A DNA stretch of 64,000 nt from a virus (lineage: Duplodnaviria > Caudoviricetes): the IMG/VR virus record IMGVR_UViG_3300031555_001469. One strand, 5' to 3'. A program made the position numbers and the translations under genes. Position 1 is the stretch's first letter; the number at the start of each line of letters is the position of its first letter. The notes below the pieces were generated by a model that searched no databases, had not been told where the DNA came from, and worked only from the letters and a program-made list of their open reading frames with translations. Positions 281-49,893 of the stretch are shown here, piece after piece.

Positions 281-2017
281 CTACAAATTATATTGATCAA
301 TCAATAACCAGTTAAGATCTGTGTCATTAACAACTTCATCATATCCTAATTCAGTTACAATGATCGGTTTAATAATTTGTTTAGCAGCACGCAAGTCTTC
401 ATTAATCTTATCCATTTCTTCCTGATCATATTCCATATCAAGCAATGTGGATTTAGCAATGATAACCTGCTTAGTTCCAGTTAATTCTCTATAACGCTGA
501 AGAGTTGCATCTCTTTGAGACTCCCAGAAATTAGGCTCTTCAAATTCAGAGAAGTGTCCATTGTATAATGGAGCTAATGGACAGATAGAACCAGTTACAC
601 CTGGATCAGAGTTAGATGAACTGTCAGGGTCTAATCGTCCCAAATGGGATACATCTAACGTTCTATAAATTTCCGGTACCGAGTTAGCTTTTTCTCCGAT
701 ACCTGCAATACCTTTATAAGTAAACTTAATCTCGGTCAATGCATCTAAATCATTAACCATATTACGATAAGTTACCAAGGTGCATTTACTGATAGCATTC
801 ATAAGGTAGTTAGGCTGGATACAAATAGCTTTCTTAAGACTATTTAAATTACCCTTCTTACCACCGTCTGAAACTCTATAGATACCTTTACTTAACTTCA
901 TAGCATATAATGAAGCAATGTAACCACTGTATCTAATAGACTTAGTTGATATATCAAGATTGGACTTATTCTTGAGAGATATAAAATCTCCCATCATCCA
1001 TCTCAATATACAATAAATGTCTGCTTTCTTGTCTTCTGGTAAATGGATTCCATTCTTAGTGGAGATATCATAGATACTTTCAAGGGAATCTAAAATAGAT
1101 AACCCCTTTTCAATTGTACTAGACTTAAACTCTTCGCCTAATTTCATTAACCAGAATTCATGAGTTCTGATACTATTTGCTGTAGTATCTTTATCGATAG
1201 CATCATAAATGACTTTGGTGACACCCTGTACTACTTCATCTCTATCAAAGACATATTTAGGCACTGTAATATATACCGCATTCTTTTCAAAGATGTAGAA
1301 GTTTTCAGGATCATCAATATAAGTACTTGATACATCGATAACTCCGTCAATTCCTAAGAATTTCATAGCACCCTGCAAACCAAATTTTGCTAAGAAGTAT
1401 TTTGACATAGAGAAAGTCTTATTGAAAATCTGAGAAGTATAATGAGCACATTTAATCTGCTGCTTATTATGAGTTCTAAGATATTCGATTTCTCTGAATA
1501 CTCTTATAGGCATAAACATGGTCTTTAAAGTAACACAGGCTTTCTTGTTTGATGAAGATGCAGTACTGTTGTTATAAGTAGACGCATCTACAATCTGGTA
1601 CATAGCTGAGAAGATATTACCATTGATTCTAAAATAATACTTCTCCACAATTCTAGGTACGATGATATAGACATCAACTGTATCTTCTTCATCACCGAAT
1701 CTAAGATAATAAGTTATTACAAGAAGTAAGATATCAGAAGATTTAATGTCGATATAATCGTACACATTTTCTTTCTTCTTATTCTTCTTATAAATACCTT
1801 CTTCGTAGTCATGAAGAAGTCTTAAGATTTCCTCATAACTTTCAACAACTCTGAAGTTCTTTACTTTGATGGTAAAGAACTTATCTCTCTGACAAGATAA
1901 AACGACATTCTTAAGCTCGTTAATAATAGCTTCGTTATTTCTGTCAAAGAATGCTTCATTGAACTTAGGTCTGTATTCCTTGTTAAACCCTGCAATAAGT
2001 TCAGCTTGATTATACAT
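281..2017 (-). CDS. multisubunit phage RNA polymerase beta subunit, N-terminal half (non-virion type)
   Basis: YFRINGN and LDVSHLGRLDPDSSSNSDPG match RpoB regions (cf. HxSHYGRxCP); split beta is typical of phiKZ/AR9-like phages. Confidence 0.85.
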   Translation of the reverse strand: MYNQAELIAGFNKEYRPKFNEAFFDRNNEAIINELKNVVLSCQRDKFFTIKVKNFRVVESYEEILRLLHDYEEGIYKKNKKKENVYDYIDIKSSDILLLVITYYLRFGDEEDTVDVYIIVPRIVEKYYFRINGNIFSAMYQIVDASTYNNSTASSSNKKACVTLKTMFMPIRVFREIEYLRTHNKQQIKCAHYTSQIFNKTFSMSKYFLAKFGLQGAMKFLGIDGVIDVSSTYIDDPENFYIFEKNAVYITVPKYVFDRDEVVQGVTKVIYDAIDKDTTANSIRTHEFWLMKLGEEFKSSTIEKGLSILDSLESIYDISTKNGIHLPEDKKADIYCILRWMMGDFISLKNKSNLDISTKSIRYSGYIASLYAMKLSKGIYRVSDGGKKGNLNSLKKAICIQPNYLMNAISKCTLVTYRNMVNDLDALTEIKFTYKGIAGIGEKANSVPEIYRTLDVSHLGRLDPDSSSNSDPGVTGSICPLAPLYNGHFSEFEEPNFWESQRDATLQRYRELTGTKQVIIAKSTLLDMEYDQEEMDKINEDLRAAKQIIKPIIVTELGYDEVVNDTDLNWLLIDQYNL

Positions 2018-2675
2018 CCTCTTCGCCTCCTATATCAGTTAATGGGATTACAATCTTTTCTCTCATAGGATTTGGGACTTCTTCGGAAGAGTCGCTAAGA
2101 ATAAGGGTTGCGTTAATATCCAGAGCATTACACATAGACTTTAACTTAGACAGTGTTATACTGGACTTATCAAACAATCTCTTATCGTTATTGAAGTTAG
2201 CACCAAATCTGGATTCGTATTTATCAATATCGATTCCCTTTGCTGCTACTGCTTTCTTTAATGCTACCATCTCTGGTGCATCAGTTTCTCTAATTTGAGG
2301 ACAGAAAATATTATCCACTGTTGTGACAATAGATCTTTCCATCTCTCTTAAAGCATTCTGCTTAGATATAAGATCTTTCATATCACTAGCAGAACCAAAA
2401 TCAATAATATTCTCTTTGGAATATTCAGCCTGTTCGGTTGCGTTAGGCTTCTTGACTACTAATACCACGTTACCGCCTCTATAAACGCCTGGTCTGGTAT
2501 CATTCTTTGCTCTTAATGGTAATACATAATCATCTAATTCGATTCCTGTATATCCATATGGTAAATTGCTACCTGTTGACAATTCATGTCTTTCGACTAC
2601 GTCGACAATCTTGCCATCGATTTTAGCCTTCTTCATAGTCATTTTATTACCTCCAAAAAATAAAATGAGGCACAC
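2010..2675 (-). CDS. hypothetical protein, possible C-terminal HTH-like segment; true start probably at MTMKK/MKK
   Basis: SITLSKLKSMCNALDI resembles the end of an XRE HTH; annotated N-terminus overlaps the RBS and a hairpin. Confidence 0.5.
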   Translation of the reverse strand: MCLILFFGGNKMTMKKAKIDGKIVDVVERHELSTGSNLPYGYTGIELDDYVLPLRAKNDTRPGVYRGGNVVLVVKKPNATEQAEYSKENIIDFGSASDMKDLISKQNALREMERSIVTTVDNIFCPQIRETDAPEMVALKKAVAAKGIDIDKYESRFGANFNNDKRLFDKSSITLSKLKSMCNALDINATLILSDSSEEVPNPMREKIVIPLTDIGGEEDV

Positions 2676-2707
2676 CTAATAGGTATGCCTCATCTCACGT
2701 CTTAATA

Positions 2708-3319
2708 TTACTTATCTGCCTTTGGTTCCTTAACAATCTGCTTGGACTTTTCACCTGGAGTGATAGCGATAACCTTTTCACCATCTTCTACACCAGCTGT
2801 TGCCACAAACAGGTCACCACATTCTAACTCTAAGAGTCCGCCTTCAACTGCATTAGTATCAAGCATTGTCTTAATAGCTTCGATTGCACCAACTGTCATG
2901 TTGTTTCCTGTAGACGGATCTACATTCCACACATAGTTGCACAGTGTGTACATAGTGTTACTTAAGATAACACCGAACTTAGGATCAGTATGCTGATAAC
3001 GTGCTGTTACGTCAGCTACATCTTCTAAGTTGAAAGTATAAGAGTAGTTCCAGTTACCAGGCATCGTAGGGTCGTCATTCTTCTCATAACGAACTACAGC
3101 ACCGAAAATGAACTCACCCTTAAGTGTTGTGATTTCCAGTAATACTGGTTCAGATTCGCTCTTAACAATCTTTAAGAACTCACTGACTGCTGTGAACAGG
3201 GATTTGGTATATCCCTTAGCGATGTCTTCATCGATTTCAAAGCCGTACTTTGTAAATACTCCCTGCTTGAATCCTACCACCGCTGTGCTTTCATCATAAT
3301 TGATCTTTGCCATAATCAA
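2708..3319 (-). CDS. hypothetical protein
   Basis: ORF with RBS, upstream TATATTAT motif and downstream hairpin. Confidence 0.65.
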   Translation of the reverse strand: MIMAKINYDESTAVVGFKQGVFTKYGFEIDEDIAKGYTKSLFTAVSEFLKIVKSESEPVLLEITTLKGEFIFGAVVRYEKNDDPTMPGNWNYSYTFNLEDVADVTARYQHTDPKFGVILSNTMYTLCNYVWNVDPSTGNNMTVGAIEAIKTMLDTNAVEGGLLELECGDLFVATAGVEDGEKVIAITPGEKSKQIVKEPKADK

Positions 3320-3460
3320 AATCCTCCTTATTATTAGGTATAATTTTATTCGAGTAGATAATTACTTCCTACTCAAATTCATAAATATAATATATCACTA
3401 TATTTACTTTTATACTTATGTAGGGATTTTTGTAACTTTTAAATCCCTACATTGTATACG

Positions 3461-5803
3461 TTAGTTTACAGGCACATATAAATCAATGTTATTAAGAAAT
3501 TCCTGATAAGGAACTATCTTAATTCCATCTTTCTTGGCCTTTTCAACTTTGGTCGATGTAAAAGTATCCGATGGTACTATAAGATACGTTGTATCCTTAG
3601 TAACACTTCCATCAGAAGCATCACACCCTCTTCTCTCTAATTCTTCCATCAGATTTCTATCTCTGAGGCCAGTGAATCTAACTTTAATAGATTTATCCTC
3701 GGAACCAAAAGTGATGATTAAATTAGGCATTTCTAAGATGGTCATTAAATCATCCATCATTGTAAGATTGTTTCTCTCTTCAAGTATAGTGTCTATTGTA
3801 CTGTCACCTATTCCTTTAATCTGAGAGAGAATACATCTAAGTTCATCATCAGTAGATCTTACCAGATCAAATGCATTAAGATATCTAAATATCAACTTCC
3901 ATTTGTTCTGAGCAATATTACTGAAACCAAGCGCTCCTATAATCTTATAATCCTCAATAGGCTGAGTCTTCAATGTATGCATTCTATCTAAGAATTTCTG
4001 CGCATTGACAGGACCAAGTTCTATTAACTCAGGACTTTCCATATTAAGATTCATAAGAGATCCTAAATTATCTTTTGCTAATACAGTTAATGCTTCTTCA
4101 GAGAAATCCTTAAGATTTAACTTCTGTAGCATATTAACCATTCTAGCCAGTGTCCTACCAGGACATTTCATGTTAGGACACATCGCAGATTTACCAGATG
4201 GAGAGATTACTAACTTTGTCTTACATTCAGGGCAAAACTCAATAAACTTCTCTACTGGATTTGGATTGCGAAGATTATCTTCAATATCCGGTTTGCTTAT
4301 TCTAGGCATAACATCATTGACATATTCCAAAGATACAATATCCCCTACTCGGAGATTGAGCTCGTGGAAACGTGCATATGAGTTAACGGTACATTTCTGA
4401 TGAATACCACCTAAGAACTCTACAGGATTGTAGTGTGCTAAAGGTGTGATGATACCATTCTGACCTACTGTATAAGTATAACCCAAGAAGGTTGTATACT
4501 TCTTCATTGCGTTAAACTTAATAGCAACTTGATACTTGTTTACAGAGTTCTCTCTACCAAGAGCCTGAATGATGTCTTCATCTACATAAGAGATTACTAC
4601 ACCATCATATAAGAATGGCATGTAAGGTCTTATGAATTCCATCTCTTCAGTAAACTTCTTTACCTGATAAAGAATCTCTGTATAGTTTCCTTGGAAAACT
4701 ACATATCTTAAATATTCTCCAGAGGCATAAAACTTATTAAGAAATTCAATCTCCTCTATCCTACCAATATTCTCTAATGAGGTTGCTAATGGTACAAGAG
4801 TAATTAAATCTCTAAACAAATATCCATCCGAAGAACCTAAGATACCAATAATTGCATTTCTACAATTCTTATAAGGTTTACCTCGAAGAGCAGATAATCT
4901 ATCGAGATTAGGCTTAGTTATAATAGCTTCAAACTTCATACCTATTGGATCCATTAGAGCAGACTCTTTAATTTCATCAGCTCCTCTGAATCTATATCCT
5001 TTAAGATATGGAGTTAAATCGGTAGCAATATCTTCACCAGTATCACCTCTTGATCTGGCGCTTTCTACCTGATTAGTCACTTCTGCTTCTACAGATACAC
5101 CATCATATTTCAGTTCACCTATCATAGTAAATACTCTGTTAGGATCGATTATACCAGAAATAATGTGTGGTGCTAAGAAGTCTCTTTCGAATATCTTTAC
5201 ATTCGAATCATTATATACCTCTGCATCCTTAGCCTGTTTATCTAAGACAAACTTAACTTTGTCTAGAGTTCCAACAAGCTTAGGATATAAGTGAGGGGTA
5301 TTGACACTTCTCTTCTGAATAGCTAATTCATCAACTCGATTGATAGGATTAACTATAAATGAAGATTTAGTAATCGGTTGTCTCATATCTAATATATGAT
5401 TAGAATAGAAACCTTCATCTATCTTCTCTTTATCCGCTACGATAATAGGAGTATAGATTGTTTTCTTTTCAATGATTTCTTCAACTCTACCCTGATCAAA
5501 TAAGATAGGTTCTGCACCTACTTGATAATTAGGGTCAAAGTTCTTATACTTCTCCAACAATAAGTCATATACCCCATCATCCAATACAAGCATTTCTTTT
5601 CCCGTATTGTTATAAAGTATATTGGAGATTATAATAATTAATCTCATTTTGATTTTGTCTGGTTCTGTAATATCCTGATTAGGTACTCTCAGAATTGACA
5701 TTGTGATTTCATTGATTCTTTTCGTAGAATCAGCGGTGACCTTTGATAAGTCACCGCTTCTTAAAGAATCAAGAATGTTTGCTAAAAATCCTTGATCAAT
5801 CAT
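3461..5803 (-). CDS. ligA: NAD-dependent DNA ligase (start reassigned to MIDQG)
   Basis: ELKYDG adenylation motif, SRGD, YDGVVI, AIKF, CPEC...CPNMKC zinc finger, HhH repeats, C-terminal BRCT (FTG...SVTKDT). Confidence 0.95.
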   Translation of the reverse strand: MIDQGFLANILDSLRSGDLSKVTADSTKRINEITMSILRVPNQDITEPDKIKMRLIIIISNILYNNTGKEMLVLDDGVYDLLLEKYKNFDPNYQVGAEPILFDQGRVEEIIEKKTIYTPIIVADKEKIDEGFYSNHILDMRQPITKSSFIVNPINRVDELAIQKRSVNTPHLYPKLVGTLDKVKFVLDKQAKDAEVYNDSNVKIFERDFLAPHIISGIIDPNRVFTMIGELKYDGVSVEAEVTNQVESARSRGDTGEDIATDLTPYLKGYRFRGADEIKESALMDPIGMKFEAIITKPNLDRLSALRGKPYKNCRNAIIGILGSSDGYLFRDLITLVPLATSLENIGRIEEIEFLNKFYASGEYLRYVVFQGNYTEILYQVKKFTEEMEFIRPYMPFLYDGVVISYVDEDIIQALGRENSVNKYQVAIKFNAMKKYTTFLGYTYTVGQNGIITPLAHYNPVEFLGGIHQKCTVNSYARFHELNLRVGDIVSLEYVNDVMPRISKPDIEDNLRNPNPVEKFIEFCPECKTKLVISPSGKSAMCPNMKCPGRTLARMVNMLQKLNLKDFSEEALTVLAKDNLGSLMNLNMESPELIELGPVNAQKFLDRMHTLKTQPIEDYKIIGALGFSNIAQNKWKLIFRYLNAFDLVRSTDDELRCILSQIKGIGDSTIDTILEERNNLTMMDDLMTILEMPNLIITFGSEDKSIKVRFTGLRDRNLMEELERRGCDASDGSVTKDTTYLIVPSDTFTSTKVEKAKKDGIKIVPYQEFLNNIDLYVPVN

Positions 5804-5804
5804 T

Positions 5805-8024
5805 TTAGATTCTTCCTTTCCTGATTGGCTGGATAGCAATTGGTCTGACAATACCAGCTTTCTGACCCGAGTCAAGATTTCTCTGGATCAAGTCTTTAAG
5901 GTCTTCTGCTTGCTGGTCAGTTAACTCAGCCAATTCGATAATAGGTTTTACTATTGTGTTCTTGGTTGTATTCTTTCTAACCGGAGCCATTACGATTGGT
6001 CTAATCTTCTTGGCTCTAGTCTTAACGAACTTCAAGCGTAATCCTATTGTCTTGAGATATGCATTTAAGATTTCTACACTTCTAGACTTAGAATTAGCAT
6101 CTAATCTAATGTCTATATTAAAAGGATCTCCAGTGATCAACTGTTCTGCTAATCTTCTAGCATGAGGAGAAGATGCATACAGTAACAGATTGATTACTAC
6201 ATATTCCATTCCTAAATGGGAAAGATCTCCAGATTCCATTTCACCAAATCTAATAGGTGTCTTGGTAAATAAACCACGATACTCTTTATTAGATTTAGAT
6301 CTGGAGTTCTCATTTCTGATATTAGTAGCAGATAAGGAAGTAACACTGAACTTCTCTTCTGCATACTGCTTTAATCTGTAGATGTACTTTCTACCAGCTA
6401 CTACAGGTCTTCTAGATTTTACAAATCTAAGATTACCCATAGAATCGATGATAGGAGCATCCATATATCTCTGAGTTGCGAATGGGAATCTATCGTATAA
6501 CTCAGCGATCTTGTCAATATCTACACCTGAAGATAATGGCATTAAAGACATAATAACACCATCATCATTTACAAATGCATTTACGAAATCCATTATATCA
6601 CAATCGTCAACTAATACATCAGTAAACTGTTTGTAGTATATATACTGATCTGGGTTTACGATTCTCAAGAATTCCATTATCAAATCTAAGCATTCATAAG
6701 GTTGAAGAATACTCATATTTATATAATCGATAATTCTTGAAGTGATATGGTTTAAAGATGTTTCAAATAACTGACCTGGATTAAGACGGTTGACACATGT
6801 AGCTTTATTGAAGATAATCTCTACAATATCACCATTATCTAATCTAGGCATCTGATCATCTGGAACAATCATAGATACTACACCCTTACCACCATATCTA
6901 TCAGCGAACTTATCACCAATCGATACTGGATTTTCTTCAAGGACATAAATATCTATATCTAAATAACTGAAAGGTCTATCTTTAATAAAGTTGTCACCTC
7001 TCAGAATACGCTTGCCATTAATATACATTTGCTCTAACTCATATGACATACTGATACCAAGCTCTGTTTCTTTTACATGATCAATGTAAGTAGTTAACTC
7101 TGTATAGAATCTGATGCTTTCAGAAAAATAACTACTAATCTGTGAAGCATATGCAGACTCTCTAAGAGCTTCTCTGTTATTACAATGAACATCGATGTCG
7201 ACTATTCTACCCTGTGTGGTATACTTATCGTCAGACATCATGATATCCTTTAAGTGTTCCCAAGACTGAGCAAATAAAGATTCCTCTTTCTTTTCTCGTC
7301 TTACAGCACATAAGATACCACCTTCAATCTCTTCGCCAATATCAGGAATAACCTTATACTGGCCATCTTTACCATACATATTCAGAAGGATATCATTATC
7401 ATTGATATTGATACTAACCTTCTTAATCAATGGTGTTTTAAACTTTGCAGCTGCTGACTCGGAAATAATAATAGCATCTTCCATTGTCGGGTTACAGCTG
7501 ATATAAGCTGTTACAAGATTACGTCCCTGTCTATGATTATCATACTCATCATATGCATTAGACTTCTGGATTACATCGTTCTCGTTAATATAACTACCCA
7601 CCTTTAAATTATCGGCGTAGCTATTATCTTTCAGGTAGCCATAAGACTCAGTGATATGCTTATAACTAACTCTTTCAAATATATCATATTTTCCCGAAAC
7701 CAAACTTTTAATAATTAAAAAGTAGTGTTGTTCTGGGTTGGTAGAAAACTTTGCTATTTTAGCAACAACTTCATATCTCTCCTCAGCTTTAATATAACCA
7801 GATGAATGTCTACCAAACTCATTCTCAAATCCGGTTTGTACTAAAGCAAGCTCTGGTTCCATGATAGGGAGTCGATGATTCGAATGTGTCGCAAACATCA
7901 ACTTTCGTGAACCGGAGTTAGCATTACAAAAGGGCTGATTAAGCCCGGTGCCTATCAGCTGCTCTGGGAACTGAATAAATTCCTTTTGAGCTTCGATAGC
8001 CTTTGCCAAATTTAATTCTGCCAT
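5805..8024 (-). CDS. multisubunit phage RNA polymerase beta subunit, C-terminal half (non-virion type)
   Basis: MEDAIIISES, GDKFADRYGGKGVVS, RLNPGQ and RFGEMES match conserved RpoB motifs. Confidence 0.92.
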   Translation of the reverse strand: MAELNLAKAIEAQKEFIQFPEQLIGTGLNQPFCNANSGSRKLMFATHSNHRLPIMEPELALVQTGFENEFGRHSSGYIKAEERYEVVAKIAKFSTNPEQHYFLIIKSLVSGKYDIFERVSYKHITESYGYLKDNSYADNLKVGSYINENDVIQKSNAYDEYDNHRQGRNLVTAYISCNPTMEDAIIISESAAAKFKTPLIKKVSININDNDILLNMYGKDGQYKVIPDIGEEIEGGILCAVRREKKEESLFAQSWEHLKDIMMSDDKYTTQGRIVDIDVHCNNREALRESAYASQISSYFSESIRFYTELTTYIDHVKETELGISMSYELEQMYINGKRILRGDNFIKDRPFSYLDIDIYVLEENPVSIGDKFADRYGGKGVVSMIVPDDQMPRLDNGDIVEIIFNKATCVNRLNPGQLFETSLNHITSRIIDYINMSILQPYECLDLIMEFLRIVNPDQYIYYKQFTDVLVDDCDIMDFVNAFVNDDGVIMSLMPLSSGVDIDKIAELYDRFPFATQRYMDAPIIDSMGNLRFVKSRRPVVAGRKYIYRLKQYAEEKFSVTSLSATNIRNENSRSKSNKEYRGLFTKTPIRFGEMESGDLSHLGMEYVVINLLLYASSPHARRLAEQLITGDPFNIDIRLDANSKSRSVEILNAYLKTIGLRLKFVKTRAKKIRPIVMAPVRKNTTKNTIVKPIIELAELTDQQAEDLKDLIQRNLDSGQKAGIVRPIAIQPIRKGRI

Positions 8025-11183: not shown

Positions 11184-12308
11184 TTAATCCTCGTCAAAGA
11201 AGGATGCTTTCTTCTTATCATCAATCTTAGTACGAGCACCGAGCTCCATATCGAACTGCGTATTAGCAGTATCGAGAGCACTTACCTTGTTATAGAAACC
11301 TTCTTCAGACATATCAGTCTGGGCGAACAGTTCCTGATATCTCTTGTAAGACTTCTCAATTGCTTCAATAGGCATCTTAATACCACCAGCAATTACAGAC
11401 ATGTACTCTTCTGCTCCATCGTACTGAATATGTGTGAAGAGCTCAAAAGGTACACCAACTTTCTTCTTTAATGTAGGGAAATCAAAGTCAATCTTATCGA
11501 GTGTTCTTTCCTTTACATTAAGGATCACAGCAAGTCTCATTACACTTGCTTCGAACCCAAGAGACTTAGATGCATCCATAGCTTCTGCTACTACAGCATT
11601 AAATTCCTTAGGGTTCTTAATTTCTCCTAAACTAAAGGTTTCGATATCCATGAAACCAGTAGTTGTAACAACCTTCAGGTGATCTGTCTCGTCAATATTC
11701 TGAGCAGAGTCAACCATATCGTTACCAAACAGAACGGATAATCTGCTAGCGAATTCTGCATTAGCTGCCTGTTCTGCCTTAACACGGTTATCTTCGTCCT
11801 TGAAAGCCTTGTTAGAAATAGCTTCAATTACGAAGTTATCCTTCATATCTTTGAATACATCAATTGTATTCTGAAGTCCGCGTCCGTCAGCTTCGAAACC
11901 AGTGAAGATGAATGTGTGTACATTTGCACCAACAACTTCACGGAAGTACTTAGCTAAGATAGGGCCTGCACCACTACCTGTGCCTCCCTCAGAAGAGAAG
12001 ACAATAACAACCATCTTATCGTCTGGGTCAAGGAAAGAGTCTGCATTGAAGGTGCCATCTTTTAACGCATCCTTCATCATCTGTCTTCCCTTCATTCTTT
12101 CTTTACCACAGCCGCCAAGATCCTTGGAAATTCTGACTGCGATGTCGGAGTAATCTGTTGGGATATCCTTCAGTGTACTATTTAAAAGTACTACCTGGGA
12201 TCTTTCAATTACACCGCTTTCAATTGCTTCGATGGCAGCCTTATTACCAGCTGCACCAATACCAATTACTTTACCCTTACATCTCATTTCATTTACCTCC
12301 ATTATCAT
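11184..12308 (-). CDS. FtsZ/TubZ/PhuZ-family tubulin-like GTPase (start probably MRCKG)
   Basis: GIGAAGN, GCGK, EGGTGSG tubulin signature loop, NIDETD T7-like loop. Confidence 0.9.
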   Translation of the reverse strand: MIMEVNEMRCKGKVIGIGAAGNKAAIEAIESGVIERSQVVLLNSTLKDIPTDYSDIAVRISKDLGGCGKERMKGRQMMKDALKDGTFNADSFLDPDDKMVVIVFSSEGGTGSGAGPILAKYFREVVGANVHTFIFTGFEADGRGLQNTIDVFKDMKDNFVIEAISNKAFKDEDNRVKAEQAANAEFASRLSVLFGNDMVDSAQNIDETDHLKVVTTTGFMDIETFSLGEIKNPKEFNAVVAEAMDASKSLGFEASVMRLAVILNVKERTLDKIDFDFPTLKKKVGVPFELFTHIQYDGAEEYMSVIAGGIKMPIEAIEKSYKRYQELFAQTDMSEEGFYNKVSALDTANTQFDMELGARTKIDDKKKASFFDED

Positions 12309-12973: not shown

Positions 12974-13095
12974 TCTTTCGTACCTCCAATTAAAAATTAT
13001 TCATCATCAGTTACACATTTATAATATATAACCAGATAATATTACTAAGACAAAAATAATCTAGTATAGAAATTAATCTATACTAGATTTAAGTT

Positions 13096-13257
13096 TTAGC
13101 GATTTTTTGTTGTAAGATACCATGCTGCCACAAATGCGCTTACAAGCATTGCACAGCCAATAGTTAATCTCCAGTCGTAAAGAGCTATTGCAGCACATGC
13201 AATATATCCCCCAATTAAGACTCCTTTGTACTTTGGTTTCTTTTTATCTGCGTACAT
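13096..13257 (-). CDS. 53-aa small membrane protein (MYADKKKPKYKGVLIGG...)
   Basis: GGAGG RBS, basic N-terminus then two hydrophobic segments. Confidence 0.55.
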   Translation of the reverse strand: MYADKKKPKYKGVLIGGYIACAAIALYDWRLTIGCAMLVSAFVAAWYLTTKNR

Positions 13258-13351
13258 TCTAAAATCCTCCCTTTAATCATTTTTATTTAAAATTTTAATT
13301 GCTTGCTGAACATGATCAGCATTAATCTTGTGTTATAGTCTCAGTGACCTT

Positions 13352-13636
13352 TTACTTAACCTTCTTTACTTTCTCAAGACGATACTTTTGTTTAATATCA
13401 GGATACTTTACACGATCCACTTCACTACAAAACATTTCAAGAGGTCTTGCGTATATTTTATATGGGGTATATAATGCCCGGTAAATTACCAGATCTTCTT
13501 TAGTTTCTGTATGTTGAGCAATAGCTATAATTTCATACAGATACATATTTATAATTCTTTCATCTTCGGAGACTGTTTCACGTTTAAAATGCTGTACAAT
13601 ATCTCCGATGTTCAAATCTTCTCTGTTTCCTATCAT
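13352..13636 (-). CDS. DUF1653-family protein
   Basis: HFK...[23 protein letters not shown]...YARPLEMF pattern. Confidence 0.85.
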
Positions 13637-13651
13637 AATAGAATCCTCCTT

Positions 13652-14356
13652 TTAAAATAAACTCTTATATTCAGATAAAACCATCTTGTTTATCTTTTTA
13701 ATAATTCTAGAAACTACAGTCTGAGTTATATGATATTTATCAGCTAACTCTTGTTGAATAATTCCGTCGGCATCTATATGCGAATTAAAATAATCATTAT
13801 ATATCGCTTTATGGCGCTCATTAGATATTGTGCTGAGTACTTTATCTTTAGCTTCGATTAAGAGATTTACGTCTAAATCTTCGAAGAATTTATCAAAAGC
13901 TGTTGTATCTGGTATAAAGTCTCCGACAGAAACATGAGTATCTCCATCATTTTTTATTATTCTATCAAGAGATTCGCATTCTGTATTTATAATACAATCA
14001 ATATATCTCTTTTTAGAAATCTTAAGAGCTTCACATACTTCATCATCAGAAGCCTCAGGGTTTTTAATCTTATAATTCGTTACCTTATAACGAATATCTT
14101 TAAAATCCCTAGGCTCTTTAATCATAGTATATTCTCTTTTATATCTTCTCATATATCCTAATATATATTGAGCCGCATATGTAGTAAATACAAATCCTTT
14201 AGATTCATCAAATCGGATGGCCGCTAAACATAAACCAACCATCCCTTCTTGAACTACATCTTCATAATCATTTTTTGTAGTATAGATTTGTTTGGCAAAG
14301 TGATGTACTAGCATCATATTATCCAAAACGTAATGCATTCTGTCTTCAGGAATCAT
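13652..14356 (-). CDS. sigma-70 family alternative (SigF/SigG-like) sigma factor
   Basis: Region 2 EDVVQEGMVGLCLAAIRFDESKGFVFTTYA; SLD; region 4 HTH QQELADKYHITQTVVSRI. Confidence 0.88.
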   Translation of the reverse strand: MIPEDRMHYVLDNMMLVHHFAKQIYTTKNDYEDVVQEGMVGLCLAAIRFDESKGFVFTTYAAQYILGYMRRYKREYTMIKEPRDFKDIRYKVTNYKIKNPEASDDEVCEALKISKKRYIDCIINTECESLDRIIKNDGDTHVSVGDFIPDTTAFDKFFEDLDVNLLIEAKDKVLSTISNERHKAIYNDYFNSHIDADGIIQQELADKYHITQTVVSRIIKKINKMVLSEYKSLF

Positions 14357-22548: not shown

Positions 22549-22700
22549 ATGTCTTTATCAAACCCCGTAGTATTATAGCTCTTTGAGCTGGATTGATAAA
22601 GGATAAGTAATTGTTTCTTCTTATCACTACTATAATATACATTCAAATTTTAAAAGATTTACACATATTAATAATTATATTTTACTGAGGAGGGTATATA

Positions 22701-22967
22701 ATGTTTACGCAAATAATTACTGATGAGGAAGTCGTAGAGATTGCTAAAATTTATGCTGAAGATGAGACTGCTACTTTTAGATCATTAGCTGAAATTTTCG
22801 GATATAGTAAATCTACTATACATAGGATATTTAAAGAAATCCTTAAAGGCCTCGATGAAGAATTATATAAAGCTGTCAAGAAAAAGATTAGCCTTAATAT
22901 AAAAATGCGTTCAATTAGAGGCGCCAAAGCCACACAAGCTAAATATGCTCGATTAAAAAGTAAATAA
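22701..22967 (+). CDS. spoIIID: SpoIIID-like sporulation transcription factor
   Basis: ATFRSLAEIFGYSKSTIHR HTH and RSIRGAKATQAKY match SpoIIID (TVRxIAKxFGVSKSTVHK...RHxRGGEATxxKY). Confidence 0.8.
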   Translation: MFTQIITDEEVVEIAKIYAEDETATFRSLAEIFGYSKSTIHRIFKEILKGLDEELYKAVKKKISLNIKMRSIRGAKATQAKYARLKSK

Positions 22968-24853: not shown

Positions 24854-24860
24854 AAAAATA

Positions 24861-24888
24861 AAGGGTATAGGAGAAATCCTATACCCTT
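24861..24888. terminator. bidirectional terminator, near-identical to the hairpin at 25664-25691
   Basis: AAGGGTATAGGA-GAAA-TCCTATACCCTT between convergent genes. Confidence 0.75.
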
Positions 24889-24893
24889 TTATA

Positions 24894-25205
24894 TTACTGC
24901 TCAGTATTCAAAATGAGTTCCTTTAAAGTATCATGAATAGTTTTCATATTAACCTCTAATAACTCTAAAGCTCTCTGCTTATCCTTACAGTCCTCTAAAC
25001 CGAAAATGAGATTTACTTCATTTGTACCCATACCAAAATTATTTTCAGGATAACTCTCTGAATAGTTAAGTAATATTCCATTATCGACATAATCCTGATT
25101 ACCTCTAAGATTATTATAGAGTCTGTCTGCTAAAGGTCTTACGTTTTTAGCATCCTCTGAATTCTTTGCGTCATTAGTTGTCTGAATTACGATATTGATA
25201 TTCAT
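24894..25205 (-). CDS. hypothetical protein
   Basis: ORF with RBS. Confidence 0.6.
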   Translation of the reverse strand: MNINIVIQTTNDAKNSEDAKNVRPLADRLYNNLRGNQDYVDNGILLNYSESYPENNFGMGTNEVNLIFGLEDCKDKQRALELLEVNMKTIHDTLKELILNTEQ

Positions 25206-25610: not shown

Positions 25611-25663
25611 AATATTACCTCCTTTATTTTATTCATGAATATAATATATCGTTATAAAAAATA

Positions 25664-25691
25664 AAGGGTATAGGATTCATCCTATACCCTT
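25664..25691 (-). terminator. terminator after the MCP gene
   Basis: AAGGGTATAGGA-TTCA-TCCTATACCCTT hairpin with a T-tract on the minus strand. Confidence 0.75.
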
Positions 25692-25699
25692 TATGTATA

Positions 25700-27349
25700 T
25701 TACTCTGTCTTGAAGATATTAACTCCTGCAATAAGAGTACCCGCAATATCCTCAACGTTCTGTGCTTTTTCTGCTACTTCTGCAATAGTAGAATTGAGCA
25801 TTTCAATTGTAGCCAGTGTTTCCTGAGTAGCTGCGGAGTTCTCCTCGCTAACTGCAGAGAGGTTGGATACCATATCTACCAACTCTTTAATTTCTTCATC
25901 GATATTTATTACAATAGAATTGATTTCAGAAATCTTACTTACAGTAGTATCAATATCCTGCTCAAGACTTCTAAATACATCCTGAGTTTCTACGAGCTTA
26001 TCTTTCTGAACTGCTACACATTCTGTAGTAGATGTGATGTTCTGAACCATAGCCTCATAGTTATTACTTAACTCTTCGAGAGTTGCCTCAATCTCATTAG
26101 AGGAAGCTGCAGATTGAGCAGCTAACTTTCTAATTTCTTCTGCAACTACTGCGAAGCCTCTACCGAACTCACCAGCTCTTGCCGCTTCAATAGAAGCATT
26201 CAGAGATAAGAGGGCCGTACGGCTAGATATACTCTTGATTGCGTTGATAGCATCCTTAATCTTTTCTACGCTATCAGACGTAACCGATACTTGATTATTG
26301 GTAGATTCAACATCCCCAACAATGGTATCATTGATATCCTGTAAACTTGCTAATGTATCTACTACAGTAGCCTTTACAGAATTCATATTTTCTGCTGCAT
26401 TATTAAGATCTTCTACATTATCTCTGATCACATCTAATTCAGTAGACATGTTGCTAATCTTTAATGTAGCATTACTTGTTTCCTCCGCCTGAGAAACTGC
26501 TCCATCAGAAATGTCCTTAACGGATTTAGTAATTTCTGTAGAAGTTTTGTTATTTGCTTTAGCTGCCTCACCAAGATCTAAAGCAATATCCTTCAATATA
26601 TCAGCTTCAACTTTAACGTCTCCAACAATTCGCTTAAGCTGATTGCTGAAGGTGCCTGTCTCATTACATAACTTCTGAATTTCATCTCCTGGATCAGTAA
26701 ACTTGATTATCTGCTCCTGAGATAAATCATTATTAAGTAATGTGTCCATTGTACCCTGCATAGTTCTAAGATTTCTAGTGATTCTTCTTACAACTAATGC
26801 AGAAGTAATGGACATTATAAACGTGTAGAAAAGCGATGTTAAAAATATCGTTATCATCTTATTAATGATAATATAATCGATATTATTTTTTGGCTCTCCT
26901 GCAAATACTGCACCTACATACTCTCCATTCTCAAATAATGGAAGATAATAAACATAATACAGTTCACCATTTACATTTGCTCTTTTGTGGAAGTATTCTT
27001 CACCAGATGATACTATCTCATAAATGGCTGCATCCATTTCGGTATTGAGAGCACCATCTATTGTCGTAAGTGCCCTAATATTACCTTTATAGATGGTAAT
27101 ATCTATACCATTTGTTTCTTTAAATGCCTCGATCAATGTTTTTATATGTACAAGATCGACTGTTTTCAACTCAGTATTTATAGCATGAGCCGAAATTGAT
27201 AATTTTTCTTCTGTGTCATCCTTCATAGCTTTACCAACTGACATCGCACTCAGGTACACAGTGATGATTGTTAAGATAAATAATGGCACTACTGCCAGCA
27301 TCATGATTTTCTTAAAGATGCTGAATCTTACTTTGGTTTCTTGTTTCAT
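25700..27349 (-). CDS. methyl-accepting chemotaxis protein (TM-Cache-TM-HAMP-signalling domain)
   Basis: [31 protein letters not shown] hairpin tip; two TM helices; Cache-like YYVYYLPL...VGAVFAG. Confidence 0.95.
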
Positions 27350-27432
27350 TTCGGTTTCCTCCTTTGAAATAAATATTAGTGGATTTAGTTACTAGAATAG
27401 GTTATACCTAATTCTATTATTATAATATACAA

Positions 27433-27792
27433 TTATAACATCGTAAATTTCATTTCGCTGAAAGTCTTACATAAAGACTTAAAGATTCTCTTTAAGAATC
27501 CTTCTCGTCTTCTATTGATTTCATCTGCAATCTTTCCGAGGAAGTAATTTCTCTCTGCATCACTATCGAAGCATCCCTTTAAATCGTCATCGAATTGATT
27601 GGCGAATATTGTTTTACCTCCACAATCAGGGATATCACATCTTAACTCTCCCCAACGTAATCGCACATAACCAACCTGGTTATCATGAGAATCAAGCACG
27701 TTATACTGTTCCGGGGAGATCTCACATGTCTGTACAAATTTTAATCCTTTTACCTTTAATACCATATTATTTTTCCTCCTTATCGATATCAA
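27433..27792 (-). CDS. phage hypothetical protein
   Basis: SPEQY...QVGYVRLRWG pattern. Confidence 0.6.
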   Translation of the reverse strand: MISIRRKNNMVLKVKGLKFVQTCEISPEQYNVLDSHDNQVGYVRLRWGELRCDIPDCGGKTIFANQFDDDLKGCFDSDAERNYFLGKIADEINRRREGFLKRIFKSLCKTFSEMKFTML

Positions 27793-28356: not shown

Positions 28357-28806
28357 CTATATATTTAATTCGACTTCAAATTCAAAATCTTTTTCGTAAA
28401 CAGTAAAACCATTGGAAATTTCAATAGCACCTTTACCTTTACCAAAAACATCATCCTCTGTTTCTTTAATGACTTCATCTCTATCATCAATTGGATAAAC
28501 TCCAATTCTGTAGCTATCACTATTATATACTAACTTAGCAACAGTTTCAATTGAGAATAACTCATTGCACTCTTCTACAGATAACACACTGAGGTCAGTT
28601 TCTTCTCCTGTTTCAAGGTTTAATAAAACCCATGGAGTAAGTTCTCCTTTACAACGACAATCTAATTTATTTTCGTTGTAATTAATTTCACCTGAGATAT
28701 CCAAAGTTAATTCAAATCTTTGGTCATCTTTTTCGTACCGTACCTTCATCCAATCAGGTACATAACCAATACCTTTTTTACTATCTGCCTCTGCATATAA
28801 TATCAT
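28357..28806 (-). CDS. acidic hypothetical protein
   Basis: ORF in operon. Confidence 0.6.
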   Translation of the reverse strand: MILYAEADSKKGIGYVPDWMKVRYEKDDQRFELTLDISGEINYNENKLDCRCKGELTPWVLLNLETGEETDLSVLSVEECNELFSIETVAKLVYNSDSYRIGVYPIDDRDEVIKETEDDVFGKGKGAIEISNGFTVYEKDFEFEVELNI

Positions 28807-47443: not shown

Positions 47444-49893
47444 TGAGTGAATCTAGGTTAGATAAAGTTATTAAAGACGTTGTATACTCTGCTCCTGGTA
47501 GACTTAGAGATATACAAAAGGGTTTAATACCTGCTATCTATACTGGTTCACTAGAAATAGTTGATAGATATACTTTAGACGAGGAACTTAAGAAAGATCC
47601 GAAGTCTACTATTATATCTACTCCTGCTATATTTAAAGACTATTATAAGAATAAGTACAAGCGTACTTTCTTTATGTCTTTACAAGAAGCAATTAGACTT
47701 AGATACACAGACCCATTCATGCTATTCATTGATGGGTCTCTTATCAAGTGGAGTTTAATCAACATTGTGCACGATCACAATAAAGACTATATTATAGTAA
47801 ATGGTAAATATGCAGGTGATATTAAGATCATCTTTTTTAATAATTCTGTAAATTATACAGAGACCGGTACTATAAATAGTTCCGATTCTGTATTATTTTC
47901 ATTTACAGACGATGGTCTTTTTACTTATGAAAATGGTACTATAATATTTTCTACCCAAAATTCAAATTTAAAGGTTGAGAATATTTACAAATTATCCGCA
48001 GGAACCTCTGTATCTAAATTACCAATAGATTACAAACATAGAGTATTCCCAGAAAACTTTTTTGCTTTCACTTCTGAGGGTAAACTTACTACAGCTGAGG
48101 TTACCACATTTCCTTTCGGTGTGTATAAGGTTACTACAGAAGAAGAGTTCTTAGATATCGTAGTTGTATATAGAGAAGATTTGGTTTATAAAACAGCTAA
48201 CTCTCTCTTACCAGTAAATACTGGATATATAATAGATATGATTGAAAGTTATAATAATGGAGATACTGTTAAGCCTTACTTAGAACAGCTTATACAGGAT
48301 ATCGAATTTAATCTCGAATCTGGTAAGGATTGGGATTATAATAAGTCTGATATAATTAAGAGAATTTTGGAATACAATCCTCTCTTAATTAAGGACGCAT
48401 TCCCTTCGAATGTAAGATACGAGATGTATACTGGTTTAGAAATGAAAGAAATTATAGGCGGTGAAACAGGAATGTTTTACGGTACTGTAAAAGTCTTTGG
48501 TTATAGTCGTATGTCTAAAGTTCTTATATTCATTAATGGTTTATGTGCAACCAATTATATTAAGCATTATTTAAACAAATTCGAATATCAGTTCATGAAT
48601 CTTCAGGATGATGATGTTATTGAAATCATGTACTTTGAGAATATAAATAATGCTGCTTATACAGTAAAAATTTCTAAAGATGAACCATATCTTCCAACAG
48701 ATGAGATCTCTTTAGATGAATTAGCAATCTTTACAACTGAGCTTGAGAATCCCGAATTCCCTGATATGGAACACTCTAGTTATACTGCATTCCCAATTAA
48801 CTTCTCGATAGAAGATAAAAAGGTTGTGTTACCAGAGTTTTATTATGGAAAGGATATCATTATTACAAGCAAGAATAGATTTGCTTATAAGTTTAAAAAT
48901 ATTGGTACAGATTGTGTATCGTTTGAATTGGGTTCTGAGTTTGCATACTGTTCCGAAATCAATAGATACATTGTTTTTATCAATGGTAAAAAATTAAATT
49001 CTGATGAGTATTTTATTACCTGCATGAAAGATTCAAGACCTTTTTCTAAGGTTATATTCTACTCCAGATATTTACTTACTCCAGGTGATAGAGTGGCAGT
49101 TTATTATCTTCCTGCTGTTCTTGATGGATTATTCAATTCTGAGATGGTATCTGAAACTGAGATTGAAGCAATCTTTGATTCGGCAACTATCTCTTATGAT
49201 ATACCTTATGAAAGCTTCTTGAATGATGGTAATTCTATTCAGTTCTTAACAACAGATGGTGAACAGGCTAACGTTACTATGAATAATGATGGTACTATCA
49301 CTCTCAATGATTGGACGGAAGAGACTACTATTATTATTAAAGAAACTTATCTGAATACACCGGGTGTATCGGAAAATGGTTATTATTATGCGAATAAGGA
49401 TAAACTTCCATATCCATTAAGCAGAGATTTATTCTTTGTATTTAATAATGGTAAGAAGATTCCTTATCATCACTTAAAAGATATTGGTACTAATGTCATG
49501 GCTATAACTGAGAATATGGAGATTGGTAATACATTCTTATCTGCTTATCATATTCCTATTCCAGAATTAGAAGATTTAATGACTAAGTACTCGTCTGTAT
49601 TAGATTCTGTTATTAGACTTTGTGACGAAGAAGAACTTAATAAGTTATTCAACATCTTCACTACTATTTCCTATGCAGAAGATATCACAGATCCTAACTA
49701 CGATCGTACCACCCTTATCAATGAAGTTATCAGAGATAACTGGATGGCTCCTGGTGTTAACTATGGTGTACCTGTTACTTATGATTACTACAGTGATATG
49801 TTTGGCTATGAAGATAGCGAAGGAAATATTATTTTCCCTACTATGGATGCGACACTGGAAAACAGTATCATCTTTACAGAAGACGAAGAATAA
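47443..49893 (+). CDS. virion structural protein (baseplate/tail-associated)
   Basis: repeated (L/V)F(I/N)(N/D)G beta modules typical of jumbo-phage structural proteins. Confidence 0.6.
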   Translation: MSESRLDKVIKDVVYSAPGRLRDIQKGLIPAIYTGSLEIVDRYTLDEELKKDPKSTIISTPAIFKDYYKNKYKRTFFMSLQEAIRLRYTDPFMLFIDGSLIKWSLINIVHDHNKDYIIVNGKYAGDIKIIFFNNSVNYTETGTINSSDSVLFSFTDDGLFTYENGTIIFSTQNSNLKVENIYKLSAGTSVSKLPIDYKHRVFPENFFAFTSEGKLTTAEVTTFPFGVYKVTTEEEFLDIVVVYREDLVYKTANSLLPVNTGYIIDMIESYNNGDTVKPYLEQLIQDIEFNLESGKDWDYNKSDIIKRILEYNPLLIKDAFPSNVRYEMYTGLEMKEIIGGETGMFYGTVKVFGYSRMSKVLIFINGLCATNYIKHYLNKFEYQFMNLQDDDVIEIMYFENINNAAYTVKISKDEPYLPTDEISLDELAIFTTELENPEFPDMEHSSYTAFPINFSIEDKKVVLPEFYYGKDIIITSKNRFAYKFKNIGTDCVSFELGSEFAYCSEINRYIVFINGKKLNSDEYFITCMKDSRPFSKVIFYSRYLLTPGDRVAVYYLPAVLDGLFNSEMVSETEIEAIFDSATISYDIPYESFLNDGNSIQFLTTDGEQANVTMNNDGTITLNDWTEETTIIIKETYLNTPGVSENGYYYANKDKLPYPLSRDLFFVFNNGKKIPYHHLKDIGTNVMAITENMEIGNTFLSAYHIPIPELEDLMTKYSSVLDSVIRLCDEEELNKLFNIFTTISYAEDITDPNYDRTTLINEVIRDNWMAPGVNYGVPVTYDYYSDMFGYEDSEGNIIFPTMDATLENSIIFTEDEE

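Follow-up and report, generated by a model that had tools for sequence, protein, structure and literature searches.

The chemoreceptor gene and its product

The 64,000-nucleotide stretch of DNA analysed here (the window) belongs to a 229,764-bp virus record in IMG/VR (IMGVR_UViG_3300031555_001469; Duplodnaviria, Caudoviricetes) and carries on its minus strand, at 25700..27349, a gene for a 549-residue methyl-accepting chemotaxis protein (MCP), here called P0001. The open reading frame (ORF) is uninterrupted, without an internal stop, and its product matches the Pfam families MCPsignal (PF00015; 104.4 bits against a cut-off of 34.6, E 7.9e-30, residues 347-478) and sCache_3_3 (61.4 bits against a cut-off of 28.8, E 1.2e-16, residues 70-160). 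Together with two transmembrane (TM) segments and an intact hairpin tip, these matches bear out the claim of a preliminary description of this DNA that the gene encodes a full-length chemoreceptor. The TM-Cache-TM-HAMP-signalling build given there holds for the TM, Cache and signalling parts, whereas the Pfam HAMP match falls below its cut-off (17.4 bits against 25, E 0.0058).

All features of the gene lie on the minus strand. The first TM segment (approximately residues 15-36; 27242..27307) is a hydropathy peak behind an N-terminus with five Lys/Arg residues and is followed by the extracytoplasmic sCache_3_3 ligand-binding domain (approximately residues 37-162; 26864..27241), which is supported by Pfam, profile and fold matches and contains a Thr85/Arg92/Tyr135 triad. 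A second hydropathy peak (approximately residues 163-187; 26789..26863) leads through the segment VRRITRNLR into a HAMP-like linker (approximately residues 188-238; 26636..26788), in which DEI/N229 is conserved in the family, and from there into the signalling hairpin (residues 239-549; 25703..26635) defined by the MCPsignal match. Both hydrophobic segments have Lys/Arg-rich cytoplasmic flanks in accordance with the positive-inside rule, and the Cache domain is therefore predicted to be outward-facing.

The hairpin tip (residues 376-412; 26114-26224) includes an intact CheW/CheA-binding region (residues 379-410), the core of which is invariant in 20 aligned relatives, and it aligns to the tips of Tsr, TM1143 and PcaY. 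Methylation-type motifs are found at residues 283-294 and 497-513; two perfect matches to the consensus [ASTG][ASTG]xx[EQ][EQ]xx[ASTG][ASTG] occur seven residues apart in the C-terminal arm (residues 498-513), and the LSAxSEENSA block that holds these two varies little or not at all within the family. The arms around the tip residue Glu394 are of nearly equal length, with about 156 residues before it and about 155 after, and 288 of 309 residues of the signalling domain align to Thermotoga maritima TM1143 (PDB entry 2CH7). From its sequence the hairpin appears to fit the 44-heptad class (44H, about 308 residues) that is usual in Bacillota, this being no formal class assignment. P0001 is thus a complete chemoreceptor consisting of two TM helices, an sCache_3_3 sensor, a HAMP-like linker and a hairpin with an intact tip and, as a protein, it is an ordinary member of a formate-sensor MCP family.

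The assignment to formate sensors comes from the ligand-binding domain. A profile built from 40 ligand-binding domains of the P0001 family and run against the PDB retrieved 8PY0 (1.1e-10), 8PY1 (4.8e-07) and little else. An AlphaFold (AF2) model of residues 30-172 (pLDDT 86) likewise gave 8PY0 as its best Foldseek match (TM score 0.74), followed by 8PY1 and ahead of WalK, DctB, CitA and DcuS. The 8PY0 entry is the sensor domain of an Oscillibacter ruminantium chemoreceptor with formate, and 8PY1 is a formate complex from Asticcacaulis (PMC11804620). In these structures a salt bridge to Arg111 (8PY0) or Arg118 (8PY1), together with hydrogen bonds from Thr100/Thr105 and Tyr160/Tyr167, keeps the formate in place, and mutation of the Arg abolishes formate binding in PacF and Atu0526 (PMC11804620). 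The spacings in the profile alignment (T-11-R-49-Y for 8PY0 and T-13-R-49-Y for 8PY1) agree with the published numbering, and the formate-contact columns fall on Thr85, Arg92 and Tyr135 of P0001.

Conservation of these positions in the family is high (Thr85 in 113, Arg92 in 118 and Tyr135 in all 122 of 122 sequences), and the full triad is present in 12 of 13 phage copies, the thirteenth having Ser in place of Thr. An sCache_3_3 domain from a Roseburia hominis MCP that has the triad residues binds formate, and the majority of the sCache_3_3 domains in gut Clostridia are predicted to sense formate (PMC11844446). Because of the profile and fold matches to 8PY0 and 8PY1, the conserved triad and the Roseburia precedent, formate is the most likely, predicted ligand of P0001.

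Transcription signals and the carrier phage

An early-promoter-like core, TATATTAT, was located by motif match at 27422..27429 (minus strand), 72 nt 5' of the P0001 ATG, in the context TTG-TATATTAT-AATAAT-A. The octamer occurs 97 times in the genome, and 42 of these copies lie in the intergenic 8.3% of the sequence. Alignment of the copies gives the extended form TATATTAT-N6-G, with 35 full sites, 34 of which are on the gene-rich strand. This consensus is the same as that of the early promoters of phage AR9, which are used by the virion RNA polymerase (RNAP) and were mapped experimentally as AAATATATATTAT-N6-G(+1) at 41 AR9 sites (PMC5312081); the same promoter core is known in Staphylococcus jumbo phages. 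In front of P0001 the core is present together with the TTG that usually lies upstream of it, but the predicted +1 position is an A, not a G; the early-promoter motif of the preliminary description is thus matched in its core and not at its start site. The AR9 virion RNAP is sensitive to some deviations from the consensus, at least one active AR9 early promoter deviates at +1, and one near-consensus site is inactive (PMC5312081). Given the A at +1 and this mixed precedent, early expression of P0001 is likely but not certain.

Other routes of transcription were also considered. No AACA-type late motif is found within 170 nt upstream of P0001. A σA/σ70-like match (TTTACG-17-TATAAT; 10 of 12 positions) lies at 27419..27447 (minus strand) and overlaps the early-promoter site; since σ70-type matches in the scan are no commoner than in shuffled sequence, it could represent only a possible alternative route. 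The 5' leader read from the sequence (about 60 nt; 27350..27415, minus strand) has no significant fold (z 0.11) and contains a GGAGG ribosome site at 27358-27362, 8 nt 5' of the ATG. Downstream, an intrinsic terminator at 25651..25694 (minus strand; hairpin 25694-25661) combines a 15-bp stem with the T-run TTTTTTAT (−23 kcal/mol, z −6.6), in agreement with the terminator proposed earlier, and the next gene downstream is preceded by a separate, perfect copy of the promoter motif at 25641. Given its own promoter motif, its own terminator and the separate downstream promoter, the P0001 gene is read as a single-gene unit extending from the early-promoter motif to the terminator.

Two repeated elements were observed among these signals. 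The terminator hairpins at 25661-25694 and 24860-24889 (both minus strand), which end the MCP unit and the two-gene unit that follows it, are nearly identical (AAAGGGTATAGGAT…TCCTATACCCTTT) and look like a reused terminator cassette. A leader of about 30 nt (…TATATTATAGTAGTGATAAGAAGAAA…CTTATCC) is repeated after several early-promoter copies, for example at 22632 in the window and at 49155, 154193 and 179432 in the genome (all minus strand).

The virus record has a CheckV completeness of 93%. Although it is labelled 'linear' in IMG/VR, its ends (1-98 and 229667-229764) repeat over about 98 bp with one mismatch, so that the assembly closes, and the genome of about 230 kb probably either is a closed circle or has terminal redundancy. 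Assemblies of four independent samples contain an identical MCP in the same gene neighbourhood (gyrA, a zinc-finger gene, small ORFs, the MCP and further small ORFs), which makes the chimeric assembly considered in the preliminary description very unlikely. As had been stated, the flanking genes are of phage type and include gyrA, gyrB, RNAP β, UvsX and Dda, together with small ORFs that match PHROG families. There are two RNAP β-like matches in the genome, the window ORF at 5805-8024 matching phrog_3295 at 4.5e-105, and the genome also encodes an NAD-dependent ligase, a DnaB-type helicase and tail proteins. A tyrosine integrase was not found in the genome, nor was flagellin or another motility gene. 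CheW, a receiver domain (Response_reg), CheR and a CheA dimerization domain were likewise not found in the full record, which confirms that the MCP is unaccompanied by other che genes, and P0001 must therefore use host partners.

Among cultured phages, RNAP β places vB_BspM_Internexus, PBS1 and AR9 closest (33% identity) and Staphylococcus jumbo phages next. The kinship to PBS1 and AR9 given in the preliminary description is thus real but remote, and since neither phage has an MCP their flagellotropism and carrier state cannot be transferred to this phage. The carrier is most likely a virulent-type AR9/PBS1-like jumbo phage of an anaerobic Bacillota host in a gut or rumen type of setting. In a direct search of 401 Lachnospirales and 399 Clostridia genomes the best match to P0001 was 35% identical, and only Lachnospirales reached E 1e-60, which points to the host order; the host is accordingly placed, with some reserve, as probably a member of Lachnospirales.

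Some other genes of this and an unrelated phage are recorded here as separate observations. A 374-residue ORF at 11184-12308 (minus strand) has a weak match to the PhuZ tubulin (phrog_4733, 2.6e-06), and a tubulin spindle may position the phage DNA. Two genes from the MCP, an 88-residue ORF at 22701-22967 (plus strand) has a SpoIIID-family helix-turn-helix match in a precomputed gene table (L002 7098-7364). In an unrelated 210-kb phage (L007) a Spo0A-like regulator with Response_reg and Spo0A_C domains is encoded at 13007-13795, 1.3 kb downstream of its MCP. Mimics of sporulation regulators therefore accompany MCPs in two phages.

Relatives and retention of the gene

The sequences closest to P0001 are 41-47% identical and all metagenomic. 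A pattern scan of species-representative bacterial genomes gave nothing closer than 31-35% among the matches listed. Against 50,697 phage records, a megablast of the locus found no match and a protein search found only nine weak records, none of them AR9 or PBS1.

A related phage contig (L183) encodes a sister protein (P0004) that is 47% identical to P0001, the two pairing in the tree with a support of 99. The MCP of this contig is flanked by homologues of two window ORFs, those for 149 residues (28357-28806; 57% identical) and 103 residues (24894-25205; 59% identical). With flanks that are only 57-59% identical, a phage about as diverged as the MCP itself thus keeps the gene at the same locus, and the presence in related phages that had been proposed as a check is thereby borne out for one such phage. 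Comparison of the two genes by the Nei-Gojobori method gives a pN of 0.34 and a pS of 0.68 over the whole gene; the tip and the C-terminal arm are most constrained (pN 0.26-0.27) and the sensor is least constrained (0.39). As synonymous sites are saturated (pS 0.65-0.73), the excess of pS over pN is a rough bound and not an estimate of dN/dS.

The wider relationships were taken from a quick LG+G4 tree, in which several rows are long-branched, and genomic contexts were looked up from long contigs. P0001 falls in a clade of 93 rows (SH-aLRT 92). Of 14 contexts examined in this clade, 13 are phage or mobile-element DNA of several unrelated phage types. Besides the P0001 carrier and the related jumbo phage L183, they comprise a phage of 70-100 kb in which Bro-N and tail genes occur; a complete phage of 210 kb that carries NrdDG, dUTPase and the Spo0A-like gene; an element with integrase, RNase H and sigma-factor genes adjoining a dockerin protein; a second element, encoding integrase, GmrSD and homing endonucleases; a phage that encodes a D5-type primase and a single-stranded-DNA-binding protein; a temperate phage carrying integrase, ParAB and terminase; a phage that has genes for PolB, NrdDG, ThyX, terminase and an SPP1-type portal and scaffold; an element of 89 kb in which GP88 and integrase are encoded; and three IMG/VR contigs. 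The fourteenth, P0005 (45% identical), lies in a bacterial chromosome between gap-pgk-tpi and pgm. The view that the clade is exclusively phage-borne was dropped on account of P0005, and the clade is mixed, though mostly phage in the sampled contexts. The choice of long contigs may over-represent phages.

The sister clade (P0124/P0078 and a Lachnospirales genome) is chromosomal. The smallest well supported clade around P0001 has 10 rows (support 99), and all six of its labelled rows are phage. Over the 32 labelled rows of the tree, four switches between phage and bacterium are needed, compared with about 11 when the labels are shuffled. More distant copies with the triad come from two complete phages, of 394 kb and 332 kb, that have terminal repeats and from an IMG/VR contig of 329 kb, and these group with a receptor from a Lachnospiraceae metagenome-assembled genome. 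In IMG/VR overall, 366 contigs have some MCP relative. The possibility of a single MCP-carrying phage family was rejected, since the 210-, 190-, 394- and 332-kb phages share nothing around the MCP with the P0001 carrier and have no RNAP β homologue or a faint one. What the other MCP-bearing phages have in common with this carrier is the MCP alone, so that it was acquired independently or exchanged among them.

Three of the contigs with MCP relatives have further features of their own. An 83.6-kb virus contig (IMGVR_UViG_3300029305_002733; L010, L036) contains two MCP-like genes about 17 kb apart, one for a full sCache_3_3 receptor (44% identical) and the other matching in the signalling part only (34%). 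In an 89-kb phage-like contig (L184) a reverse transcriptase (RVT_1; 3271-4473) is encoded 2.5 kb upstream of the MCP and could represent either a retron or a diversity-generating element. Another MCP-bearing element (L169) is adjoined, just beyond its integrase end, by a gene (938-5425) for a 1495-residue protein with peptidase C1, lectin-like and dockerin domains, which suggests a cellulosome-bearing Clostridia host for that element.

Proposed function and comparison with known systems

The integrity of the gene, its phage setting, the sensor homology, the triad, the retention in a related phage and the repeated carriage by phages are consistent with a working formate-class sCache_3_3 receptor that is expressed early from a single-gene unit, enters the host arrays and confers formate taxis on the infected cell, a reading that we consider about evenly poised between right and wrong. 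Early expression, incorporation into arrays, formate binding and a behavioural effect with its benefit would be the successive elements of such a mechanism. Soon after DNA entry the virion RNAP would transcribe the P0001 gene, and the product would be inserted into the membrane by the host Sec/YidC machinery. Its tip would dock to host CheW and CheA in existing arrays, and host CheR and CheB (or CheD) would modify its methylation sites. Formate bound at Thr85/Arg92/Tyr135 would then bias the output of CheA, and the infected cell would gain or strengthen taxis towards formate. As a product excreted by active fermenters and used by acetogens and methanogens, formate could form gradients that mark dense anaerobic consortia; speculatively, the virocell would benefit by staying fed and its progeny by being released where hosts are plentiful.

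Several points weigh against this reading. The HAMP match is below threshold, the +1 position of the promoter copy departs from a consensus to which the AR9 enzyme is in some respects sensitive, the synonymous sites are saturated, and the sampled contexts both favour long contigs and include a chromosomal member. In addition, a host with a che system and flagella is assumed, as is enough time within a lytic cycle for membrane insertion and entry into the arrays.

Early over-production of the receptor might instead swamp or lock the host arrays, leaving the cell in one rotation state or without taxis and thereby blocking flagellum-dependent superinfection or holding the cell in place, the ligand being irrelevant. 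The strong phage promoter-like motif and good ribosome site would suit such a role, as would the lack of che partners in the phage, and PBS1, which is flagellotropic, is among the nearest cultured phages by RNAP β. However, pure jamming requires neither the triad nor the methylation motifs, both of which nearly all phage copies retain; PBS1 and AR9 lack an MCP and are related at only 33% identity in RNAP β; and the phage encodes no flagellin or other motility gene that could be found. Jamming is therefore considered unlikely, and of the steering and jamming suggested in the preliminary description a real sensing role, and hence steering, is rated higher because not the tip alone but also the triad and the methylation block are retained in the phage copies. 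Conservation of the pocket would also be expected if the phage used external formate, as a proxy for community density or host energy, to tune its latent period, lysis timing or carrier state through host CheA/CheY or a phage partner rather than through swimming. Carriage of MCPs by both temperate (integrase, ParAB) and virulent phages and the Spo0A-like regulator 1.3 kb from the MCP of the 210-kb phage are in keeping with this idea, but neither a receiver, CheW nor a kinase was found in the phage genome, and the neighbours of the MCP are not conserved between MCP-bearing phages. To our knowledge, no output of an MCP other than control of CheA has been described, and we hold this explanation to be slightly less probable again than jamming.

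The gene might also be a captured host gene that is useless to the phage and kept by chance in a large, tolerant genome. Jumbo phages carry many accessory genes and the family is also present in bacterial chromosomes, but the frame is intact between a phage-type promoter motif and a terminator, the related phage with its 57-59% identical flanks keeps the MCP in place, pN is well below pS, and unrelated phages have repeatedly acquired or retained such genes. Moreover, no bacterial copy is more than 45% identical among the matches listed, so capture was not recent, and a mere passenger seems improbable. An artefact of assembly or binning, with host MCP DNA misjoined to phage DNA, is the least credible explanation by far. 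MCPs are typical bacterial genes and some 'viral' MCP matches in IMG/VR may be prophage edges; nevertheless, different pipelines recovered the identical protein and the same phage neighbours from the four samples, neither GC content nor strand bias shows a break at the locus, the MCP has phage promoter motifs to either side and the contig closes on itself.

Beyond formate taxis conferred by the P0001 carrier on its own host, a phage-adapted lineage of formate receptors might move among unrelated phages of gut and rumen Clostridia, ranging from 30-kb siphovirus-like phages to those of 210-394 kb, and might drive virocells or lysogens up formate gradients to dense fermenting consortia, raising transmission; this wider proposal is tentative and on balance rather doubtful. 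Viral control of host behaviour is well known in animals and hardly documented for bacterial swimming. The same type of sensor, its pocket kept, turns up again and again on unrelated phages of anaerobes from gut and rumen, a pattern that looks non-random. If the proposal is true, phages steer infected cells in the gut and rumen, which adds a spatial term to phage-host dynamics, and they are linked to the cross-feeding of formate, a key intermediate among fermenters, acetogens and methanogens. Early expression by a virion RNAP in a lytic-type jumbo phage would further mean that steering takes place within a single infection cycle and not in lysogens alone. The new elements are the predicted ligand, the AR9-type early promoter motif, the persistence of the gene at its locus in a related phage and the mostly phage-borne nearest relatives; the first and last of these had been missed by the preliminary description.

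The known systems most similar to P0001 are the formate sCache receptors, namely those of O. ruminantium (WP_040662586; 8PY0) and Asticcacaulis benevestitus (8PY1), Atu0526 and PacF's distal module (PMC11804620) and the R. hominis MCP (PMC11844446). They belong to the same Pfam sensor family, provide the best profile and fold matches in the PDB and have Thr/Arg/Tyr ligands that align to Thr85/Arg92/Tyr135; the overall build (TM, sCache, TM, HAMP or HAMP-like linker, signalling domain) and the type of habitat (rumen or gut Clostridia) are also the same. P0001 differs in that its sensor is only about 20% identical to that of 8PY0, in that its ligand is predicted, and in that its gene is located behind a phage promoter motif in a virulent-type jumbo phage rather than in a bacterial chromosome. 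In its signalling part it resembles T. maritima TM1143 (2CH7, 3JA6) and the McpB-type 44H receptors of Bacillus subtilis, with a hairpin of about 311 residues after the HAMP region that aligns nearly end to end with 2CH7 apart from small gaps, EE/QE methylation motifs seven residues apart on the C-terminal arm and, likewise, no C-terminal pentapeptide.

The carrier is similar to AR9, PBS1 and vB_BspM_Internexus, which have two multisubunit RNA polymerases, in its two RNAP β-like genes, its size (approximately 230-250 kb) and the TATATTAT-N6-G motif at about 35 sites, but it differs from these Bacillus phages in host and habitat, in the low RNAP β identity (33%) and in having an MCP, which they lack. 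No study of a phage chemoreceptor was found in the literature searched, and the jumbo-phage reviews and surveys consulted make no mention of chemotaxis. P0001 matches the unannotated family phrog_8572 at 3.5e-38 over residues 166-478, the sensor lying outside the match, so that MCP-like proteins of phages and prophages had already entered genome catalogues; entries for MCP, CheR and CheY are also tabulated for Nitrosospira phages (bioRxiv 10.64898/2026.05.02.722434). As phage cargo, P0001 thus joins a scattered and little-studied set.

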